Virus record (IMG/VR): IMGVR_UViG_2721755660_000006
Coordinates: 1 to 55,157 of that record
Direction: 5' to 3' (one strand)
Source: a virus
Taxonomy: Duplodnaviria > Heunggongvirae > Uroviricota > Caudoviricetes
Length of the DNA: 55,157 nucleotides
Made by a program: the position numbers and the translations under genes. Below the pieces are notes generated by a model. It was given only the letters and a program-made list of their open reading frames with translations, ran no database searches and was not told the DNA's origin. Below are positions 5,079-55,157 of the stretch, in pieces (position 1 is the stretch's first letter; each line of letters starts with the position of its first letter).

Positions 5079-5255
5079 CGCAATGACTCCATTATGTTAA
5101 TTAACGGAATAATTCTACCATTTTGTGATCTGCGTTACATTTTTGACGCATACAAAATGTATTTATTGATTTATATCAATATACGAAATGTGGTTTTGTC
5201 GGATATTTAAGCCACCGGATGAACCGGACGAGCTAACAAGAATGAGGATTCAAAA

Positions 5256-5504
5256 ATGAAAAACATGTTCAAAGTGGTCTTATTCGCTGCGGCTGTAGCT
5301 CTTACTGGTTGCTCTGTTGACAAAGAGGCTGCATTGCACAACCTGCCAAATAGCGGAGTAATCCCACAAGAAATTGTCTATGATGCTGACGGTCATCTTG
5401 TATATGACACTGAAAAACTTCCGTATACTGGACAATGGTGTCATGAACTCGATCACAACATGCGCCGCATCGGTAGCCCGTCGAATTGCGTAGCTAACTA
5501 CTAA
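5256..5504 (+). CDS. Small lipoprotein moron, possibly Cor-like superinfection exclusion
   Basis: 82 aa with lipobox (LTGC) after a hydrophobic signal; sits between tail fibre and J on the opposite strand; own upstream element and terminator. Confidence 0.6.
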   Translation: MKNMFKVVLFAAAVALTGCSVDKEAALHNLPNSGVIPQEIVYDADGHLVYDTEKLPYTGQWCHELDHNMRRIGSPSNCVANY

Positions 5505-11790: not shown

Positions 11791-11919
11791 TTTCTCACCT
11801 TCTGATTTTGTGATCTGCGTCACGCCAAATCATACCAAAATGGATTGATCGCGGTTTATACAATATGTATATTTTACTCAAACGGAAGCACAGTTAACAA
11901 AATGGCGCGGAGGTGTGAG

Positions 11920-12075
11920 ATGGCTGATAAGGTGTGGAGGTTGAAGGTATTTCTGACAGACGGAAGGGAAATGACTGTTGCCCTGTATAAAGATGAAGGC
12001 GATGCACTTACTGACGCGCTCTTACTCGCTGAAGACGAAAGAGTTTTGGGATACAGACTCGAACCTGTCAAATGA
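11920..12075 (+). CDS. Hypothetical small protein (moron island A, gene 1)
   Basis: 51-codon ORF with GGAGGTG Shine-Dalgarno; plus strand, antisense to the tail genes. Confidence 0.5.
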   Translation: MADKVWRLKVFLTDGREMTVALYKDEGDALTDALLLAEDERVLGYRLEPVK

Positions 12076-12087
12076 TGGTTTAACAAA

Positions 12088-12438
12088 ATGCAAAAATATA
12101 GTTTAGAAATATGGACTGATAAATGTGAATGGGAGCGCATGGGCCTGTTCGACACATACGTCGCAGCGCGTGATGAAGGTCGTGAGTTACTTCGCTGTTG
12201 GTCTAACGCTCGTGATTTTGATATTACTCCGGTGCAAGTGCCGGATAAGGTGGAAGAGATGAACCCGAAAGATATTAACTTTAACGTCAATGTTGAATTT
12301 GCAGACTCTATGGATCAGTCTTGCCCTGGTGAAATACACGCAAAAGGTTTCCCGGCAGACGATCCGCAAGCAAAACGCGAATACGAAAAAGCTGCGAAAG
12401 ACTTCTGCATAGATAACCTGGGCGCATTCGATAAATAA
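12088..12438 (+). CDS. Hypothetical protein (moron island A, gene 2)
   Basis: 116-aa ORF closely following gene 1 on the plus strand. Confidence 0.55.
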   Translation: MQKYSLEIWTDKCEWERMGLFDTYVAARDEGRELLRCWSNARDFDITPVQVPDKVEEMNPKDINFNVNVEFADSMDQSCPGEIHAKGFPADDPQAKREYEKAAKDFCIDNLGAFDK

Positions 12439-12447
12439 GGCGGCAAC

Positions 12448-12696
12448 ATGGGGCGGCGCAATCACGGTGATTATGTGTACACGTTGAAACAGGCCGCCCG
12501 CCTCATCGGTTATCATGAGCACGAATTTATTGATTTGCTGATTGAGCGCGGGATACTGTACCAGGTCTGTTTAACGCTGTACCCGAAAGCGAAATACCTA
12601 CAGGAAAAGTTATTCATCATCATGACGGATGAAAACCAGGTGAATCATTCATTCGTCACTGATAAGGGATTGACATACCTGAAGGGGGCGTTATGA
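12448..12696 (+). CDS. Hypothetical protein, possible HTH DNA-binding (moron island A, gene 3)
   Basis: 82-aa ORF 10 bp after gene 2; helix-turn-helix-like segment (TLKQAARLIGYHEHEFIDLLIERG); followed by a terminator. Confidence 0.5.
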   Translation: MGRRNHGDYVYTLKQAARLIGYHEHEFIDLLIERGILYQVCLTLYPKAKYLQEKLFIIMTDENQVNHSFVTDKGLTYLKGAL

Positions 12697-13359: not shown

Positions 13360-13515
13360 AAGTTACATTTTGTATATATATTTACGCGCTTCTACGCGAA
13401 AAATGAGATCTTCATCACAATGATTATAGCTAGTTTACAAAATGGCTTCACATAGTACGAAACAAGATGTATACATAAAGCAAGAAGAAAGCAGTACCAA
13501 CGAAGGAGGCCCAAA

Positions 13516-13670
13516 ATGAAACGCTATGTAGTGGTAATGCTAAACAACGCATTCGAACAAGTGGAAATAGCAATCGTTAAGGGTTTCGACGACGCATTCA
13601 AATACGGTCAATTCATGATGAATGCAAAAGAAGATGAATACCGGGACTTCTTCCTGAAGGCACTTAACTA
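13516..13670 (+). CDS. Hypothetical small protein (moron island B, gene 1)
   Basis: 51-codon ORF (MKRYVVVMLNNAFEQ...DFFLKALN) with strong AAGGAGG Shine-Dalgarno; not in the supplied track (under 60 aa). Confidence 0.5.
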
Positions 13671-13688
13671 AGGATGATGGGGTGAGTT

Positions 13689-13943
13689 ATGAAACTGGTA
13701 GCGATTGACAAAAATCTGAAAGCACAGAAAAACGCGCCGGGACATGTAGTCAAAAAAGCAAAGGAACTTTTGAACGCGTTTTTAAACAAGAATGCGTCAC
13801 CCAAAAAATTGAAAGACGGTTACGGCTACGCCTTCCGCGCCAATTTAGACTGGCGAGTCTATAGCCAGGATCTGAAAGAGTGGGTGATTGTTGAACACCA
13901 TAAATTCAATGAATTGTCTGGCGTTCGCGGTTGCCATAAGTGA
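13689..13943 (+). CDS. Hypothetical protein, possibly RelE/ParE-like toxin fold (moron island B, gene 2)
   Basis: 84 aa; C-terminal KKLKDGYGYAFRANLDWRVYSQDLKEWVIVEHHK resembles the RelE/YafQ-type pattern by eye; unverified. Confidence 0.5.
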   Translation: MKLVAIDKNLKAQKNAPGHVVKKAKELLNAFLNKNASPKKLKDGYGYAFRANLDWRVYSQDLKEWVIVEHHKFNELSGVRGCHK

Positions 13944-14060
13944 GGTGGTATGGAGGACGATAAATTCACCTGGAGGGAGATCTGGAATATTTGGTTGGTG
14001 ATGTTTTCTCGCAGCTATATAGCCAGAAACGGAAGATTGTAATTTGCGGAGGAAAATAAA

Positions 14061-14237
14061 ATGAAAAACCAGGCAAATAAAAGCAATGTAAAACGTATAG
14101 CCTGGATCGTAAAATGGATGGATAGTAAAGGAGACACATATACTGAACCATTTTTCAAACATACTGATGCAGTATTTGCAAGAAGTGTAAGAGGCGGGAA
14201 AATTGAAAGAGGATATACAAGTTTTGAGAATAACTAA
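14061..14237 (+). CDS. Hypothetical small protein (moron island B, gene 3)
   Basis: 58-codon ORF with GGAGGA Shine-Dalgarno, followed by a terminator. Confidence 0.45.
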   Translation: MKNQANKSNVKRIAWIVKWMDSKGDTYTEPFFKHTDAVFARSVRGGKIERGYTSFENN

Positions 14238-14269: not shown

Positions 14270-16618
14270 TTATTTGCGGCGCGGTTGCAATATTCCGCCT
14301 GGTCGTTGTGATTCCCTTGTTATCATTTTCATTGCTACACGTTCCATTGTCTGCTCAAGTCTGCGGCTGTCCTCGTCGCTAAATCCGTTTGTGGTCTGAA
14401 TGTTGATATTGACAGGCATACTAATGCCGCCGCCACCGCCAATGTCACGGCCAGGAATAACCCTGCCATTCTCGCCAGGGATCATATATTGATTTCCGTT
14501 AGATGTCTGGAATAGCTCCGGCCTGTTGTGTTCCCCTACACGGTACATATTGCCACCAATGACGCTACCACCATTAAAGCGACCGCCGCCAAAAATTGAC
14601 GTAGCCAGCGACATGATCGCAGTAAGTGCCGCAGAACCAGCCGCCGCCCAGCTACCGCCAGTTGCCGCCGCAGTTGCCGCCGCTGCCGGGGCCGCAGCCG
14701 CCGCAATGCTCCCCTGAGCGGCTACCGCGCTTGCCGTTGTGCTGGCCTGCGTGGCCTTGCTTTGTGTCTCCATCATGATCTGATCTGCTATCCAGTTGGC
14801 TGCTATGTCTGAGAGTCTGTTACCGATATTGCCGAGTATATTGCTTCCTAAGTTAGCAAAAACATCACTCAATGATTGAGTACCGTTTAACAGGCCAACA
14901 AGCGCATTGCTCATGCCACCTTTAAGGCCATTAACGCAATCACCGATCAGGCCGTTAGTGTCGCTTTGCGCTTGCCACTGCTCCCACTTCAGATCGCGGA
15001 TCTGTTGCTCATAGGCTAACAATTCCTGTTTCTGTTGCGCTTCAGTAACGCCCAGGTCGATAAGCATTTGCTTACGGACGGCCCATTCATTTTGTGCCTG
15101 CTGAATAGGGTCAACCTCGCCTTTAAGCTGATCCATCGGGCTTACTATTTGCGCCCATTTATCACGCAATTCATCTACCGGAATTTGCGCTAATTCTTCC
15201 TTCAGTTCCTTACCTATCCCTTTTTGCGCGGCGCGGTACTCAAGGAGAGTGATTTTACCCTGGGCGAATGCAGCATCAATGGCCTTGCCGTTCTCTAACG
15301 CTTTGCGCATAGCTGCGGCGTCTTTGTTGTACTGGTCGGATACTTTTATGCCTTCATCACCAAGCCGATCAGCTTCAGATTTCTTGTCTTTTTTCCCTTT
15401 TTTCCCTTTTTTCGGCTTGCCAACTGGCTGATCGAATCCGGTGATCTTGCCGTCATCAGCCTCGCCCTGTTTCTGCATAAACTCATCATAAACGGCGGTC
15501 GCATTTTTGATGTCATTTGCAAACGTCATGACCTTACCGACTGTAGGGCCGAATTTCTTTTCGTTGTTGCTGTTTAGCTCATTCTTGCGTTTATCAATGA
15601 TCTCCTTCATCCATTTGTAGCCATCCATTAGCGCTTTGATTGGCGTTACCATCCTGATAATCTCTTCCGCCACCTCACCAGCTTTAACAGCAACATCATC
15701 AAACATGTCGATAAACTCACTGCCAGCCGTTTTTAGTGTATTGAAACAGGTTGCGGCGAATTTTGCGCCTTTACCTAATCCCTCAACGCCACCAGTTATT
15801 AAGTCGATAGCTGACACAACGCCATCTGATATGCCGAAAAGATCATCAAGTTGTTCGACAAGTCCCATCACCTCGACTTTAAGCTCATTAAAAGCCATAC
15901 CGGACGTGCGCGGTAACTGTGCAAACTTCTCGTTTGTTTCCTGCGTAGCCGCCTGGATCGCGTTGAGCATCCTTTCAGCCGTGATCTTGCCGTCCAGCAT
16001 TTCGGCGCGGAACTGCCCCATAGATAACCCCATCTGTCGGGCCATTTCCTGTATGATTGTTGGGGTGTTATCACGTATTGAGTTGAACTCTTCCGCCTGC
16101 AACACGCCAGCATCAATAGCCTGGCGGAACTGAAGCATGGAGTTTGATAGTTGTTCCGCAGACACGCCGCCCAAGTTACCAAGTTTTTGCAGCGTGCTGA
16201 CCAGGTTGAGCACCTGGCCTTCTGTGGCGGATGTGTTTTTTAGCGATATAGCAAGACCTTGCCACAGGGCACCAGTATCCTTGAGGCTTTGGCCTGTTTC
16301 TTTTGATATTTCTTTCAGTCTGTTGAAAACCCGTTCCGTTGCCTCCGCTTCACCTGTAAGCAATTTGATTTTTACGCGAAGCATTTTTGCCTGTTCCGCC
16401 ATATCCATAAATTGGCGCACCGCTTCCGCAGCAAGTAGCAGATGGATGACCCTGGTCAGTGCTTTGATTGATGTCTTCAGCGTGTTTACCTGGCGGTCAG
16501 CACGTTTTGCGCCGCGCTCTATACGGTCAAAAGCCTGGTCGGCCTGGCGTTGTGCAACGAGAAGTTGACCAGTTTTAGCGTCAACCTCGTAATAAATTGT
16601 ACCTACACTGGTAGCCAT
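14270..16618 (-). CDS. Tail tape measure protein
   Basis: 782 aa, largely alpha-helical with Ala/Gly-rich hydrophobic C-terminal segment; positioned between chaperone and M as in lambda H. Confidence 0.8.
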   Translation of the reverse strand: MATSVGTIYYEVDAKTGQLLVAQRQADQAFDRIERGAKRADRQVNTLKTSIKALTRVIHLLLAAEAVRQFMDMAEQAKMLRVKIKLLTGEAEATERVFNRLKEISKETGQSLKDTGALWQGLAISLKNTSATEGQVLNLVSTLQKLGNLGGVSAEQLSNSMLQFRQAIDAGVLQAEEFNSIRDNTPTIIQEMARQMGLSMGQFRAEMLDGKITAERMLNAIQAATQETNEKFAQLPRTSGMAFNELKVEVMGLVEQLDDLFGISDGVVSAIDLITGGVEGLGKGAKFAATCFNTLKTAGSEFIDMFDDVAVKAGEVAEEIIRMVTPIKALMDGYKWMKEIIDKRKNELNSNNEKKFGPTVGKVMTFANDIKNATAVYDEFMQKQGEADDGKITGFDQPVGKPKKGKKGKKDKKSEADRLGDEGIKVSDQYNKDAAAMRKALENGKAIDAAFAQGKITLLEYRAAQKGIGKELKEELAQIPVDELRDKWAQIVSPMDQLKGEVDPIQQAQNEWAVRKQMLIDLGVTEAQQKQELLAYEQQIRDLKWEQWQAQSDTNGLIGDCVNGLKGGMSNALVGLLNGTQSLSDVFANLGSNILGNIGNRLSDIAANWIADQIMMETQSKATQASTTASAVAAQGSIAAAAAPAAAATAAATGGSWAAAGSAALTAIMSLATSIFGGGRFNGGSVIGGNMYRVGEHNRPELFQTSNGNQYMIPGENGRVIPGRDIGGGGGISMPVNINIQTTNGFSDEDSRRLEQTMERVAMKMITRESQRPGGILQPRRK

Positions 16619-16775
16619 GATTTAACCTCATACAAAATGTGATCTATGCCTCTATTTTATACAAAATGGCTTTACTGTAACGACTCCATTTTGTATAAAG
16701 AGGCTAAAGGAAAGGGATAGAGCAAAGGGATTTAAAAGGCCGGATTAACCGGGGGAAGCGAAGGAGGATAAGAAA

Positions 16776-16859
16776 ATGAAAAACGTAAACTACCGCCCCA
16801 ATGAACATGAACGCTATGCGGACTTCATCGAGGAAATGTTAAAAGCACTTAAAAAATAA
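16776..16859 (+). CDS. Hypothetical mini-protein (moron island C, 27 aa)
   Basis: GAAGGAGGA Shine-Dalgarno then ATG; sequence MKNVNYRPNEHERYADFIEEMLKALKK; C-terminus resembles island B gene 1. Confidence 0.35.
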   Translation: MKNVNYRPNEHERYADFIEEMLKALKK

Positions 16860-16927
16860 ACAATATGCGTGTATAACTAAGTTAAATGAAGCATTTAGCA
16901 AATTAGAATAAGCGGTAGGAGTTGATT

Positions 16928-17341
16928 ATGAAACGGTTAGCAAAAATGGCACTTACTGTGATTGCCGCACTCGCATTTAACGCGAACGCTAACGAGGCCA
17001 TAAGCATTAACTGTGAAGAAGTGGCAAACCATGTAGCCGCATATCACGACATGATCAAAAAAGAACCTGCCGCGCCAGCAATTCTTTTTAAGGCAATTGA
17101 TAAAAAATTTGAAGGTAAACCAGTTTATGCTCGTTGGTTTAATTATGGCCTTGTAAACGAGGCCGCTGTAGGCGTAGTCTTTGAAAATAATAGCGAAATA
17201 AAAAACAGGATAGCAAACGAGTGTAAGGCAAATAAAGTTGCTTTCGCGGAAAGAATTTTTAATGAAGGCGGCGCGGGTGCAAAAAATCACGCAATTGTAG
17301 ATTTGGGTAACGGTTTTATTGATATTGTTAGAATCAAATAA
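16928..17341 (+). CDS. Secreted/periplasmic hypothetical protein (moron island C)
   Basis: 137 aa with cleavable signal peptide (MKRLAKMALTVIAALAFNANA); TAGGAG Shine-Dalgarno; terminator follows. Confidence 0.65.
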   Translation: MKRLAKMALTVIAALAFNANANEAISINCEEVANHVAAYHDMIKKEPAAPAILFKAIDKKFEGKPVYARWFNYGLVNEAAVGVVFENNSEIKNRIANECKANKVAFAERIFNEGGAGAKNHAIVDLGNGFIDIVRIK

Positions 17342-17347
17342 GATGAA

Positions 17348-17372
17348 CGCCCGGATCTACCGGGCTTTTTCT
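17348..17372 (+). terminator. Rho-independent terminator after the secreted-protein gene
   Basis: CCCGGATCTACCGGG hairpin plus CTTTTTCTT. Confidence 0.65.
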
Positions 17373-18043
17373 TGCTTGCTATTTTTCATTCTTTCTAGTG
17401 CCTTTTTAGCGGCCTCCATTTGCTCGTCATAAGCACGTTTATTTATGTGAACGTTTGGCTTGCTTCTCTCGTTTCTTTCGTCTGGCGGCGTTTTAGCGCG
17501 TACAGCGGCCCTATATCCGGTCATTGTCATATTCCACGCTTCTGATTCAGATAATCCCAGGTGAGCTACGGCAGAATAAACGAATTCCAGCACGTTAAAA
17601 GTCGGCTTATATTCCCCTTCCCGGATCTCTCCGGCGTCTTCTTCTGGCCCGTCACCGATTAACCCGTGGTACATGCAATGTTGCGCCAGCGTGATAACGT
17701 CACTGGTCGGCATCAGTCCGGGTTTTAGTCGCAATTTGCCGGAAGGAGTAAACCTACATTCACCAAATAACGGGCCTATTTCGTCTTCTGAGCAACATTT
17801 CAGGATGTGTATTGACGTTTGCACTATCTCACCATAACACCGCGCCAGAATGCGATTGCGTAGGTCTGGATCTGCTGGCAATCGTGATGGATATTTGCCA
17901 CCGTGGATGGTTGCGAAGTATTCGACCAGTTCTCTGTCACTGCCGATCTTAGCCATTGCAGCGAAACAGGGATTAAACACATACCGCCTGCCGTCTACCA
18001 CCGCCGCAAATTGTCCTGTTCGAACATGAATCATAGTTTTCAC
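17357..18043 (-). CDS. Putative tail assembly chaperone
   Basis: 228-aa ORF in the position between major tail protein and tape measure; no family motif recognised. Confidence 0.4.
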   Translation of the reverse strand: MKTMIHVRTGQFAAVVDGRRYVFNPCFAAMAKIGSDRELVEYFATIHGGKYPSRLPADPDLRNRILARCYGEIVQTSIHILKCCSEDEIGPLFGECRFTPSGKLRLKPGLMPTSDVITLAQHCMYHGLIGDGPEEDAGEIREGEYKPTFNVLEFVYSAVAHLGLSESEAWNMTMTGYRAAVRAKTPPDERNERSKPNVHINKRAYDEQMEAAKKALERMKNSKQEKAR

Positions 18044-18087: not shown

Positions 18088-18564
18088 TTATGCTGCTGGG
18101 ATGTCGCCAACCGTCACCTTACCAGCGCTTGAGCACTCAATAGACCAGGTGGAGACATCATCGTTCGGGTCTTCCTCTTTAAAGGAAGTGCAAAGGAATG
18201 GACCTTCAGTTACATCAACCGGAGAAACAAGTTTAAGCCACACATAAGGCTGAGATCCGGTTGTTTCACCAGGGTTAATAACGTGACGCTTCAGTTCTTT
18301 CTGATTATGGATTGCTTCAGTACGCGATACACCATCGCCGGAGAAAGAAACAGATTTGTAAGTAACCATTGATTCTTTCGTGTAGTCTGCTGATTTATCA
18401 GCGGTGGCGTCTGCGGTTTCCCATTCGACGGAAAGCGTTTTGCCGCGCATCATTCCTAACGCTTTGTAATCGTCATCTAACGGCTTCGCGTTAGGACAAG
18501 CGATAGCGTAGAATACAGCCACGTCGCGGCCCAAAAACGCGCCCTTTTCGCAAGTCTGAGACAT
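18088..18564 (-). CDS. Major tail tube protein
   Basis: 158 aa; position and size typical of siphovirus major tail protein; terminator downstream. Confidence 0.65.
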   Translation of the reverse strand: MSQTCEKGAFLGRDVAVFYAIACPNAKPLDDDYKALGMMRGKTLSVEWETADATADKSADYTKESMVTYKSVSFSGDGVSRTEAIHNQKELKRHVINPGETTGSQPYVWLKLVSPVDVTEGPFLCTSFKEEDPNDDVSTWSIECSSAGKVTVGDIPAA

Positions 18565-31898: not shown

Positions 31899-32040
31899 TT
31901 ATTCTTCTTCGTCCCCCTTGAATCCTAAACACTCCGCGTATTCGTCAATGCTTAATGCTTCTTCACCTGGTGCCAGTTCTTCAAAATAGCGGGCGTATAG
32001 TTCAAAGACCCAGGCCGGATATTTAGCGTTAGCGTTCATT
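31899..32040 (-). CDS. Hypothetical small acidic protein
   Basis: 46 aa from MNANAKYPAWVFELY; acidic C-terminus. Confidence 0.4.
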
Positions 32041-32136
32041 TTCTTGTCTCCCCTTCCGTCTTTCCTTGACTTATATATAACAAAATGGCACTGCCTGAAC
32101 AATGCCATTTTGTAAACTTTGCGGGGTAGATCACGT

Positions 32137-38293: not shown

Positions 38294-38452
38294 AATGCTC
38301 TCTCCTTTTCAGGTGATTTCTACGCATTTCAGCGCTGCCGGATTTTTAAAGAGCATTTTGTTTGCTTGAAGTATACAAAATGGATACGTGCTAACAAGGT
38401 GTAAAGCGCCATTATGTGACATTCATCACACAATGACGCCATTTTGTAAACT

Positions 38453-46200: not shown

Positions 46201-46848
46201 TTATGGCAGGTTTACGATCTTCGCATCAACCACCACGCCTATAATTTTTGATTCTGGATTCATAGGGATTGGCGGATACAGCGGATTCAGCGAACGTAAA
46301 AGCCTTTGACCTCCATCAATAATCAACTGTTTAAACGTCGGTATCTGCCCTTCCTCAAGCTGGGCTATAACCAGTTTGCCGTCAATAGCTGGCGCGTGCG
46401 GGTCAACAAGTATCATCGTCCCCGCCGGGATGCTCAACCCCTGCGGCGCGTTCATTGATTCACCTTTGGCAACCAGCCAGTAACTATCATCTGAACAAAT
46501 AACGCTAGTCGTAACGTGTGGTAATGCTGATCGCCTTGTGTCATCCATATTGTTTACTGTGTCCTTCCAGTCAATAACCGGGTAACTACCTAAATCACGC
46601 GGCGGTGCGGCCTGAAGTGTATTAGAAACAGAATCATCAATGACCATACCATCATGTGTAACAGTGAACTGACGACGCCCAAGCGCCCGCATAATCCGCG
46701 CAATATCTTCAAGATTTGGCTCGCGGCGACCGTTAAGCCAGTGTGACAGGCCGCCTTTAGTTATCCCCATGAGATCTGCGAGTGAATCCTGACTCATGCC
46801 CTGCGCCCGCATGAGCTGCTTTGCTAAGTCATACCATTTTGTTTTCAT
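46201..46848 (-). CDS. CI-like repressor (HTH plus S24 LexA-type peptidase domain)
   Basis: 215 aa; N-terminal HTH (MSQDSLADLMGITKGGLSHWLNG) and C-terminal S24-like autocleavage region with GESM and DGKLVIAQL. Confidence 0.85.
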   Translation of the reverse strand: MKTKWYDLAKQLMRAQGMSQDSLADLMGITKGGLSHWLNGRREPNLEDIARIMRALGRRQFTVTHDGMVIDDSVSNTLQAAPPRDLGSYPVIDWKDTVNNMDDTRRSALPHVTTSVICSDDSYWLVAKGESMNAPQGLSIPAGTMILVDPHAPAIDGKLVIAQLEEGQIPTFKQLIIDGGQRLLRSLNPLYPPIPMNPESKIIGVVVDAKIVNLP

Positions 46849-46869: not shown

Positions 46870-46980
46870 AAAGTTTGATGCAAGTCACAAAACGTGTATT
46901 TTAAGCCTTGATCTTAAAATTCCATTTTGTAAACTTGCAGACAAGGTAAGGCCATACTTGCAAAGACGCAAGGAAAAAGA
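46870..46980. promoter_or_regulatory. Operator-like palindromes in the repressor/cro-position intergenic region
   Basis: Repeated half-site ACTTGC/GCAAGT: GCAAGTCAC near 46873, ACTTGCAGACAAGG near 46930, ACTTGCAAAGACGCAAGG near 46959. Confidence 0.4.
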
Positions 46981-47154
46981 TAACGGAAGGCACAAAAAGG
47001 CACTTACCTTAAGCTCTTTAAAAATCCGGTGTCGCTGCGAAGCGAAAAACAAATATCACGCAACGGCGGGATCTGTTGAGCGGTCAGTCACTGCTATCTA
47101 ATGCTAATGGGATGCCCGCCCGCGCGTTCACTCTAACCATAGGAGAAAAACAAG

Positions 47155-53746: not shown

Positions 53747-53964
53747 TGGATAAGATCGGGACAATACTTATTAACCGTGAGCAAGTGCAAAAAATGTTAG
53801 GCGGGCTTAGCAAGTCCGCCTTTTTTAAGCTCGTTAAAAAATGGAAAGAAGCGGGAACTCCTTTCCCTGAACCTGTAAAGGGGATGCCAGCATTAAAGCG
53901 CGGGGGATCTCTTTACCGTTATCAGGACGTTATTTCATTTTGTAAATCTATGGGCTTCATGTAA
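53746..53964 (+). CDS. AlpA/Xis-like small DNA-binding protein (candidate excisionase)
   Basis: 72 aa; LINREQVQKMLGGLSKSAFFKLVKKWKEAGTPFPEPVK pattern; adjacent to integrase, 3-prime ends overlap convergently. Confidence 0.45.
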   Translation: MDKIGTILINREQVQKMLGGLSKSAFFKLVKKWKEAGTPFPEPVKGMPALKRGGSLYRYQDVISFCKSMGFM

Positions 53965-55121
53965 TAATCAGCCAGTTTATTCATCGCCTCGATTTGCTCC
54001 CTCACATAATCATACTGATCATATATAGCCATCATCCCCGCCAGTTTATGACCTAAAACCTTTTCGGCTACATGCGGCGCAACGCCAAGCGCTGAAAGGT
54101 TTGTCCTTACAGTGCGGCGCAAGTCGTGACACGACCACGGCTCGCCGCCCATCCTTAGCATCAAATCCCTTGCGGCTGTTTTCGGCACGCTCCTGTCTAC
54201 CGCTTCATCCCTTCCAGAAAGCACGGGAACGAAGATAAAATTAAAGCCGTGCAAATCCATAGCTTCACGCAATAAACCTACGCTAACGGCGGATAAACCG
54301 CGTTTAAACTCGTTTCTGTTCTTACTCAATGCACCCGGCACGGTCCACACACAGTTATCAAGATCGAAATGCTCGCGCCTTGCGTTTGTTAGTTCGCTTG
54401 TTCTGCATCCGGTGAATATAATCAGCTTCATCAATATCTGATTTAGCCGCGCCATTTTTGAACTGTCTATAATGCTGATTAGATGGTGAATCTCTTGTAT
54501 TGATAAGACGCGTTTTCTTTGCGCCGGGTTTTTGCCTACGTCTTTCACGCGTAGTAATGATATGTCGTCACGCTCCACGCGGCGGCGGCGCATGGCATAT
54601 TTTATCACCGCCTTCATCCTGTTTAAGACTATCCCGGCCTGAACCGGCGCGCCACCATTAGCTACCTTTCTAAAAATCCCCTCCCACATTATGGAGTCCA
54701 TATCATCGACGATATAGCTACCGCATGGTCTGACAATGTGCTTACTTAGCATCGCATCGACTTGCTTATAGTTGACCATGTTTCTTGCCTGCGGTGATTC
54801 CATGTACTCCCTAACAATATCTTCAATCGTTGCCCGTGTCGTAACGCGTGACAAGTTCATTCTTTTTACGATCGATGGATCTCGTCCTGAGTTTAAGACT
54901 TCCTTATGCTCCGCCACCGCCGCGCGGGCTTCTTTGAGTGTTATTTCTCCGTATGTGCCGATCTTCATCCGTCGAGGCTTGCCGTTGAATCGGTAGCGAT
55001 ACTGGAAAGATATAACTCCGCGCGGGCTTATCCTGGCAGACAATCCGCCCGCGTCCGGGACTTCTTCCGGGCCGTCATATGGCTTGCCGTGGATGTTTCG
55101 TAATTTGGTATCTGTAAGCAT
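53922..55121 (-). CDS. int: Tyrosine integrase (P4-type family)
   Basis: About 399 aa from MLTDTKLRNI; C-terminal catalytic region with HDLRRT and LGH motifs; attR core immediately upstream of the start. Confidence 0.9.
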   Translation of the reverse strand: MLTDTKLRNIHGKPYDGPEEVPDAGGLSARISPRGVISFQYRYRFNGKPRRMKIGTYGEITLKEARAAVAEHKEVLNSGRDPSIVKRMNLSRVTTRATIEDIVREYMESPQARNMVNYKQVDAMLSKHIVRPCGSYIVDDMDSIMWEGIFRKVANGGAPVQAGIVLNRMKAVIKYAMRRRRVERDDISLLRVKDVGKNPAQRKRVLSIQEIHHLISIIDSSKMARLNQILMKLIIFTGCRTSELTNARREHFDLDNCVWTVPGALSKNRNEFKRGLSAVSVGLLREAMDLHGFNFIFVPVLSGRDEAVDRSVPKTAARDLMLRMGGEPWSCHDLRRTVRTNLSALGVAPHVAEKVLGHKLAGMMAIYDQYDYVREQIEAMNKLADYYMKPIDLQNEITS

Positions 55122-55123
55122 AA

Positions 55124-55145
55124 TTTGGTCACTATTTGGTACACA
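55124..55145. repeat. attR core (second copy of the 22-bp direct repeat)
   Basis: Identical to 1517..1538; located 3 bp upstream of the likely integrase start codon (MLTDTKL at 55121). Confidence 0.8.
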
Positions 55146-55157
55146 CATTTTACGCAT

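Follow-up and report, generated by a model that had tools for sequence, protein, structure and literature searches.

Why does a short plus-strand gene for an apparently secreted protein stand between two minus-strand genes of a phage tail operon, and what might its product do there? The question is raised by positions 16620-17372 of a 55,157-nucleotide stretch of viral DNA (IMG/VR record IMGVR_UViG_2721755660_000006), analysed here over its whole length and called the window, in which a 137-amino-acid (aa) protein, the cargo, is encoded against the direction of the surrounding tail genes. The region is an autonomous reverse-oriented moron cassette lying between the gene in the tail-chaperone position and the tape measure gene, and, as judged by sequence comparison, the slot that it occupies is a recombinational cassette acceptor, in which the promoter region, and often a micro-gene and signal-peptide DNA, are kept while the mature domains are exchanged. 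The slot and its flanks comprise the following features, in which ORF denotes an open reading frame and nt nucleotides:

14270..16618, minus strand: tape measure protein gene, the left flank of the slot (Pfam TMP_3, 3.6e-48; phrog_1538, 2e-143)
16631..16639, plus strand: third copy of TACAAAATG, overlapping the tape measure Shine-Dalgarno region on the opposite strand
16638..16645, plus strand: TGTGATCT, the left half of a CRP-box-like element (AAAATGTGATCTA) whose right half is degenerate (CCTCT)
16656..16699, both strands: inverted repeat TTTATACAAAATGG-N16-CCATTTTGTATAAA, with perfect 14-nt arms (16656-16669 and 16686-16699) and a 16-nt spacer
16671-16676 and 16694-16699, plus strand: promoter-like element of the right arm, TTTACT, 17 nt, TATAAA, directed toward the cargo (predicted sigma-70)
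16681..16676 and 16659..16654, minus strand: promoter-like element of the left arm, GTTACA, 16 nt, TAAAAT, directed toward the tape measure gene
16700..16775, plus strand: purine-rich 5' leader with seven GGA triplets and a small CCGG-ATTAA-CCGG hairpin
16776..16859, plus strand: micro-gene of 27 codons (MKNVNYRPNEHERYADFIEEMLKALKK), with the Shine-Dalgarno sequence AAGGAGG at 16761-16767
16928..17341, plus strand: cargo gene, the 137-aa ORF, starting MKRLAKMALTVIAALAFNANA
17349..17372, plus strand: intrinsic terminator, GCCCGGATCTACCGGGC followed by TTTTTCT, with the stem at 17349-17365
17357..18043, minus strand: DUF6246 gene, the right flank of the slot (Pfam DUF6246, 1.6e-55; phrog_791, function unknown)

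That the cassette behaves like a classical moron is supported by its terminator, its composition and its predicted promoter. The terminator of its own that a preliminary description of the region had assigned to it was recovered by a scan (17349-17365 plus the T run) and folds with a free energy of -17.9 kcal/mol (z = -4.6 versus shuffles). It overlaps the final DUF6246 codons on the opposite strand, and because its minus-strand reading carries no T run, it should halt plus-strand transcripts far better than late minus-strand transcripts; the records of the related phages mEp021 (TERM_9) and mEp010 (T13/T14) show terminators in the corresponding position. The base composition is distinct as well, with a GC fraction of 0.38-0.41 across 16550-17450 versus 0.47-0.53 in the flanks, a drop of about ten points, and with GC and AT skews that switch sign across the cassette. 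Taken with the opposite strand, the signal peptide and the orphan product, these properties uphold the earlier reading of the region as a moron, and the plus-strand ORF placed between two minus-strand genes is indeed there, although its ATG lies at 16928 and not at 16929. The naming of the right-hand neighbour as a tail chaperone holds as far as position goes, the DUF6246 gene lying between the tail tube gene (18088..18564) and the tape measure gene, where the tail assembly chaperone belongs; besides DUF6246, however, only faint Pfam matches speak for such a protein (Phage_TAC_11, E 0.15; Phage_TAC_6, E 0.25), and a search for a solved structural relative of the DUF6246 protein returned none.

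The behaviour of the slot was followed in two sets of relatives, comprising (i) complete E. coli genomes searched by BLAST, in which the conserved upstream region occurs in 29 of 5426, and (ii) 42 contigs of ~53-57 kb recovered from IMG/VR by exact pattern matching to the inverted repeat. After orientation and delimiting of the slot by the DUF6246 gene, its defined right boundary, 40 loci were readable. All 40 are occupied. The cargo falls into four or more mutually unrelated sets, nearly all of them targeted to the membrane or the periplasm:

11 of 40 loci: the 137/138-aa family studied here
15 of 40 loci: a VasI/TagO-family lipoprotein (PF11319, 1.2e-15), then a BamE-like lipoprotein or a 106-aa protein
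6 of 40 loci: a secreted, Cys-containing protein of 116-119 aa
8 of 40 loci: a 35-aa transmembrane peptide and a 100-aa membrane protein

Nearly every cargo starts with MK(R/S/Q)L(A/I)K followed by a hydrophobic stretch. In a profile comparison of the 137-aa family with the 116-119-aa family the first 43 columns (residues 1-43) align and nothing further does, and homology between the two cargos was rejected, the alignment being limited to the signal-peptide end; the 116-119-aa family is an orphan too, confined to E. coli and the phage group of mEp021. At the nucleotide level, an mEp021-type copy of the 137/138-aa family and an unrelated 116-aa cargo (L003 versus L035) are 97% identical over nt 28-66, and over the first 90 nt, which were compared, the identity falls to background directly past the cleavage site, which places recombination joints inside or at the end of the signal peptide. 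The cargo gene of Escherichia phage MagusPhagus and the TagO-like gene are 89% identical over their first 27 nt and share nothing beyond. A more specific reading, possible though doubtful, is that the slot is a dedicated envelope-protein acceptor in the tail operon, where unrelated mature domains are grafted onto a conserved expression-and-export module; the proposed parts of this module comprise a CRP-like half box, paired phage-type promoter elements, a purine-rich leader, a micro-protein of 27-29 aa and a shared Sec signal peptide.

Among these parts the micro-gene, introduced in the preliminary description as a possible 27-codon ORF, proves to be a genuine conserved gene. Its ORF is intact in 31 of 31 carrying loci (21 unique nucleotide sequences), the sole indel is one whole codon, in frame, and the variable sites are distributed 9/3/15 over codon positions 1/2/3. 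For the antisense ORF at 16704..16808 (minus), which has no Shine-Dalgarno sequence, the identical sites would fall 15/3/9, a non-coding pattern. It is nevertheless the antisense strand that carries the "hypothetical protein" calls over the micro-gene in MagusPhagus (CDS0038), mEp010 (mEp010_98) and mEp554 (mEp554_93), and mEp021 annotates nothing there. The slot of mEp554 (L002 3274-3795) also bears an unannotated plus-strand cargo, comprising a 28-aa micro-gene, a 35-aa transmembrane peptide and a 104-aa membrane protein, in place of which the record shows two minus-strand "hypothetical proteins".

The micro-peptide, MKN(V)NYRPNEHERYADFIEEMLKALKNKN, of 27-29 aa, is hydrophilic and probably carries an amphipathic helix; like the 137-aa protein, it matches nothing in Pfam, PHROGs, NCBIfam or PADLOC, and within the phage collection it is confined to phages of the mEp021 group. 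Fifteen loci are without it, and since TagO-type loci of this kind join the promoter region straight to the cargo, the micro-gene is not obligatory for cargo expression; it belongs to the conserved upstream module and not to any single cargo. The spacer between micro-gene and cargo (16860-16927) measures 68 nt in MagusPhagus-type loci and 13 nt in the other types. The 68-nt form holds a degenerate copy of the promoter -10 region (TGTATAACTAAGTTAAATGAA versus TGTATAAAGAGGCTAAAGGAA, 76% identity), which could be a second weak promoter or the relic of a recombination joint.

The cargo itself begins with the classical signal peptide that had been noticed earlier, the sequence satisfying the n-, h- and c-region rules alike. 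The n-region MKRLAK (+3) is charged, the h-region MALTVIAALAF reaches a mean Kyte-Doolittle hydropathy of up to 2.6 and lies within the 7-15 residues of Sec/signal peptidase I substrates, and the c-region AFNANA presents small residues at -3 and -1; rule-based prediction accordingly assigns residues 1-21 to the signal peptide, with cleavage at the AXA site between ANA and NE. The pattern is retained in 15 of 15 family members despite a variable h-region sequence. The DNA of the c-region (16979-16993) is an (AAC GCN) repeat encoding NANANA, which in certain E. coli homologues (P0003 and P0004; 139 and 141 aa) has one or two further units, an expansion which suggests that slippage is tolerated in the cleaved segment. 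The predicted mature protein has 116 aa and 12.8 kDa, and its Cys29 and Cys99, invariant in the family, would fit a periplasmic disulfide.

Structure prediction, which the preliminary description had suggested as a check, gave a confident and compact AlphaFold2 model, with a predicted local distance difference test score (pLDDT) of 85 and a predicted template modelling score (pTM) of 0.83, comprising a five-helix bundle and a small three-stranded sheet; a fold match to this model was sought and none was found. The statement that no family is recognised holds across Pfam (E <= 1), PHROG (1), NCBIfam (0.1) and PADLOC (E <= 1), in which the 137-aa protein matches zero models, and a sequence search of the PDB returned noise only (best E 0.27). 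A word-indexed search of 5.8 billion proteins recovered 17 clusters, each of E. coli or Caudoviricetes origin and at least 69% identical, and an exhaustive HMMER search of 1.84 billion representatives recovered only the family itself and weak multi-repeat matches to EF-hand-like repeat proteins. In the latter, residues 39-75 (..DMIKKEPAAPAILFKAIDKKFEGKPVYARWF..) align with the EF-hand pair repeats of two large repeat proteins, whose repeat unit matches Pfam EF-hand_7 at 5.9e-9. Membership in the EF-hand family was rejected: K occupies position 3 and R position 12 of the loop (D-K-K-F-E-G-K-P-V-Y-A-R), the calcium ligands are absent, and hhalign gives a single-repeat probability of 7.6%.

The 137-aa ORF is under purifying selection, with a ratio of nonsynonymous to synonymous substitution rates (dN/dS) of 0.05-0.25 over 11 unique homologous sequences, and is therefore a real gene. 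Between the 137-aa (Magus) and the 138-aa (mEp021) types the synonymous sites are saturated (dS > 2), whereas the flanks are ~86-90% identical, so the two types are old alleles moved by recombination. In the loci and searches examined, the family occurs exclusively in this slot of the mEp021 group. Its homologue in mEp021, gp63, is not marked as virion structural in a record that so marks the proteins detected by mass spectrometry, which argues that the 137-aa protein is not a virion protein; the supplementary files of the paper describing the group leave gp63 unmentioned (PMC11893012). The gene has already been deposited as "hypothetical protein" in several records.

Upstream of the leader, the motif cluster noted in the preliminary description is present in full, comprising TGTGATCT at 16638-16645, the perfect inverted repeat and three exact copies of TACAAAATG within 65 nt, at 16631(+), 16660(+) and 16687(-), two of which form the repeat. 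In the loci found by BLAST the repeat arms are invariant, and the spacer varies in sequence at a fixed length; arm invariance in the IMG/VR set is circular, the arms having been the search pattern, and the BLAST set provides the independent evidence. The plus-strand -35 hexamer is conserved as TT[TC]ACT in relatives. The third TACAAAATG copy is weakly conserved (GTAAAAAGTG in mEp021) and probably not functional as such, and an RNA switch in the minus transcript, formed through this copy beside the tape measure Shine-Dalgarno sequence, was rejected because the copy is not conserved. The seven GGA triplets of the leader, counted over 79 nt, are the highest number in any span of that size in the sequence (top 0.02%); control by CsrA through them was rejected, the excess over composition-matched shuffles being nonsignificant (p = 0.11). 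Rfam detected zero families over the whole window at gathering thresholds, and this region gave sub-threshold noise only (E up to 5).

The promoter-type motif recurs throughout the window. The 8-mer CATTTTGT has 24 occurrences, mostly intergenic, versus 2.2 expected, and the 9-mer with one mismatch allowed has 45 matches versus 22.6 +/- 4.3 expected. Its extended 16-mer form, [G/T]CCATTTTGTA[A/T]ACTT, nearly always precedes a -10-like hexamer (TAAACT, TATACT, TATAAA or TATATA), and its sites include 5119, 5159, 13366, 13444, 32087, 32106, 38382, 38440, 45401, 46080, 46923 and 49976; mEp021 retains 17 motif copies at orthologous positions. Two copies occupy sites at which genuine promoters are to be expected. 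The copy at 46921-46936 lies 17 nt past TTGATC and upstream of a boxA-like GCTCTTTAAAAA at 47013 (nutL), and the copy at 38382 (minus) lies ~20 nt upstream of another boxA-like box (nutR2), nut sites having been described for these phages (PMC11893012). The motif also occurs within the repressor gene, in the part that encodes the N-terminus, and beside the early promoter downstream of that gene. Each reverse-oriented island of the tail module has a boundary copy facing the next late gene, and most also have a copy facing the island. The motif is read as the shared promoter core of the group, and a phage regulator may bind it; its interpretation as a -35 element (TTTACA) was rejected, a -10 at 16-18 nt being absent after every copy. 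As regards a possible role as operator of the repressor, Rep, all 48 known members of the group share one repressor type, and their immunity region is 88-89% identical.

A second layer of control may involve CRP. TGTGAT is invariant in 30 of 30 unique upstream modules, in which the adjacent positions vary, and the centre of the half-site lies ~60.5 nt upstream of the predicted plus-strand start, near the reference position of a class I box (about -61.5). Across the window, TGTGA-N6-TCACA boxes with at most one mismatch number six versus 1.43 expected, a count reached by 0 of 100 shuffles, and five of the six lie inside motif-bearing regulatory regions (5124-5139, 11809-11824, 13404-13419, 38415-38430 and 46874-46889). 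The box at 38415 is perfect, and the promoter next to nutR2 has its predicted start ~61.5 nt downstream of the box centre. We advance CRP control of the slot cassette as a hypothesis suggested by these sequences.

The genomic setting agrees with the label of prophage cargo given to the gene. The window is an integrated prophage, essentially MagusPhagus, from the mEp021-like "mEpimmI" group. Its left end (1-1428) belongs to the host and matches a gene for a p-aminobenzoyl-glutamate transporter (abgT-like); phage DNA begins at ~1429, and the integrase gene (53922..55157) stands at the right end, a disposition that places the left attachment site near 1429. Positions 16500-17500 are 100% identical to Escherichia phage MagusPhagus (PP925836.1) and match mEp554, mEp010, mEp021, mEp044 and mEp515 partially, at ~86% identity; these phages make up the group described as "mEpimmI", and their prophages are reported to be equally common as lambdoid phages in human gut E. 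coli (PMC11893012). A CI-like repressor gene lies at 46201..46848 (minus). From 46 kb down to 1.6 kb nearly all genes are on the minus strand, and the tail module holds four short plus-strand islands, at ~5.2, 11.8-12.7, 13.5-14.2 and 16.8-17.3 kb, the last being the cassette studied here. The first of them bears a gene of direct interest:

5256..5504, plus strand: lipoprotein gene, 82 aa (MKNMFKVVLFAAAVALTGC...), between the J and tail fibre genes, in the position of Lpp021 (mEp021_81)

The Lpp021 lipoprotein (mEp021 gp81) experimentally excludes mEp021 and mEp515 (PMC11893012). The leader of the 5256 gene (ATTTAAGCCACCGGATGAACCGG...GAGGATTCAAAAATGAAAAAC) is paralogous to the slot leader, and its upstream motifs are shared with the slot. 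The two islands in between, 11845-12696 and 13516-14237 (both plus), encode a KilAC/ANT-like antirepressor-domain protein (12448..12696), a ParE-like toxin-domain protein (13689..13943) and small ORFs, and their cargo may be of toxin-antitoxin or anti-repressor type. A further module, at 32020-32135 (minus), parallels the slot with CGTGATCTA, N13, TACAAAATGG-N16-CCATTTTGT, TATATA, a purine-rich leader and AAGAAAATGAAC. It drives a 46-aa ORF (31902..32039, minus), and the 69-aa ORF listed with its start at 32108 is probably over-extended. mEp021 lacks the module at the corresponding position. The reading of the module as a Q-dependent late promoter was rejected, as the region upstream of the mEp021 holin bears no such module and MagusPhagus has no U-tailed terminator after it.

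Several characterised systems help to place the 137-aa protein. HK97 gene 15, the first moron ever named, is located between the tail chaperone and tape measure genes and is expressed from the prophage; its product blocks genome injection by a mechanism that depends on the tail of the incoming phage (PMC3594210). The cassette resembles it in (i) the slot of a temperate E. coli siphophage, between the chaperone position and the tape measure gene (PMC3594210), (ii) the organisation as a self-contained unit with its own terminator and its own promoter, the latter predicted for the cassette, and (iii) an N-terminal Sec-type hydrophobic segment and an envelope destination, both predicted for the 137-aa protein. 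It differs in lying on the strand opposite to the tail genes, and an exclusion activity would be ascribed to it by analogy. The Lpp lipoproteins (Lpp021, mEp021 gp81; Lpp010) share with it the phage group, a reverse-oriented island in the tail module, CCATTTTGT / TGTGATCT / TACAAAATG upstream, a leader that is paralogous in MagusPhagus and an exported product (predicted for the 137-aa protein). They carry a lipobox (L-[AT]-G-C) and exclude phages by receptor type, whereas the 137-aa protein has no lipobox (AFNANA before the cleavage site, NE after it), no co-variation with receptor and an unrelated sequence; a search of its signal peptide for [LVI][ASTVI][GAS]C found no such motif, the first Cys being residue 29. 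The lom and bor genes of lambda and cor of phi80, N15 and HK022 encode prophage-expressed envelope proteins that alter the surface or block receptors (PMC3594210), and they too are accessory genes in or beside the tail region of temperate coliphages. Their products are outer-membrane proteins or lipoproteins of known families; the 137-aa protein is a predicted soluble, periplasmic, helical orphan.

By analogy with these systems we tentatively propose, with rather less than even confidence, that the 137-aa protein may be a periplasmic exclusion or defence factor acting after adsorption. The cassette would be transcribed from the repressed prophage, with a CRP-like half-site ~60 nt upstream of the predicted start that may couple expression to cAMP-CRP, and the 12.8-kDa mature protein would be set free in the periplasm, where a disulfide between Cys29 and Cys99 would probably stabilise it. 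From there it would protect the lysogen at the envelope, most likely by superinfection exclusion after receptor binding, the blocked step being tail-tip or tape-measure passage or DNA entry, as for HK97 gp15 encoded in the same slot, and it would complement the receptor-level Lpp exclusion lipoprotein of the sister island. The idea of an exclusion or host-interaction factor, raised in the preliminary description, is strengthened by the presence of gp15 in the same slot and of the Lpp exclusion lipoprotein in a paralogous island. The envelope character of the slot's other cargos points the same way. As mEp021 (OmpA receptor) and mEp010 (LamB receptor) carry near-identical copies of the protein, its target is probably not an outer-membrane receptor.

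Several observations weigh against this proposal and the cassette model around it. Neither sequence nor structure links the 137-aa protein to a relative of known function, so that its role is argued wholly from context, and we infer transcription in the lysogen, export and phenotype alike. With HK97 gp15 and YebO it shares no sequence relationship, the YebO family not being matched in Pfam, and gp15 is anchored in the inner membrane, whereas the 137-aa protein is predicted to be soluble and released to the periplasm by cleavage at the AXA site. The left CRP half-site of the slot is perfect and invariant (AAATGTGATCTA), but the right half, CCTCT, matches at 2/5 positions, with 3 mismatches. The slot promoter and the phage's own early promoter before nutL belong to one motif class, so that the slot promoter could be under repressor control or active mainly in lytic growth. 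Finally, an empty slot was sought among the 40 loci and none was seen, so that "insertion" is deduced from the variability of the cargo and from other siphophages, in which the chaperone and tape measure genes are adjacent.

Three other explanations compete with the exclusion or defence proposal. In the first, the protein would serve lysogenic conversion and have nothing to do with phages. It would benefit the host in the gut either as a periplasmic immunity protein or inhibitor, directed for example at a bacteriocin or at an amidase or lysozyme-type effector of the type VI secretion system (T6SS) that acts in the periplasm, or through a role in stress or adhesion. The product is small, helical and predicted periplasmic with two conserved Cys, a format common to many periplasmic immunity proteins; the alternative cargos of the slot include the T6SS-associated VasI/TagO-family lipoprotein and the BamE-like lipoprotein, the alleles are deeply diverged under purifying selection, and gut E. 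coli often harbour the carrier phages (PMC11893012). A cognate toxin gene is absent nearby, however, and the family never occurs outside the phage slot, whereas orphan immunity genes usually also adjoin effectors, which leaves this explanation rather unlikely. That the cassette is instead a lytic-cycle accessory unit, dormant in the lysogen and activated once induction or infection has occurred, to serve lysis timing, protection from secondary adsorption or conditioning of the envelope, we regard as unlikely. Its promoter core ([G/T]CCATTTTGTA[A/T]A..) shares its type with the nutL and nutR2 elements that serve early N-antiterminated transcription, the presence of the motif in the repressor gene and beside the early promoter would allow for a common regulator, possibly the repressor, and every reverse island is bounded by a motif copy that faces the downstream late gene. 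Yet the sister islands with the same motif encode a ParE-like toxin module and the Lpp lipoprotein, which are sensible only if expressed from the prophage; transcription of the cassette collides head-on with that of the late genes, an arrangement ill suited to a late function, and moron composition and a dedicated terminator fit independent expression.

The 137-aa ORF could, lastly, be incidental, the functional part being the regulatory DNA or the micro-gene, with a divergent promoter that restarts tail-gene transcription and an ORF that is tolerated. The upstream module is conserved more widely than any single cargo, a minus-strand promoter-like element faces the tape measure gene, and, alongside the 15 loci that have no micro-gene, many have no 137-aa cargo. 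The dN/dS of 0.05-0.25 across deeply diverged alleles nevertheless reveals selection on the protein and largely refutes this explanation, which is also at odds with the confident and compact AlphaFold model, with a signal peptide and two Cys that are invariant or functionally conserved, and with the presence of some envelope protein in every slot variant; we consider it very improbable.

For the mEpimmI phages, whose prophages are common, the analysis amends the public annotation: the micro-gene is either left out or assigned to the opposite strand, and the membrane-protein cargo of mEp554 suffers from a strand error as well. The transcription programme of the group could be approached through its shared promoter and CRP-like elements. 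If the 137-aa protein is truly an exclusion or defence factor, it would add a soluble periplasmic type, with a new fold, to a class made up mostly of membrane proteins and lipoproteins. Swapping at the level of the signal peptide, if confirmed, would be a concrete and testable case of phages diversifying their envelope-acting cargo, and, should the slot be a dedicated acceptor, these phages would have a stock of periplasmic and membrane proteins for exclusion or defence that can be swapped rapidly, with the micro-protein as an additional conserved component.

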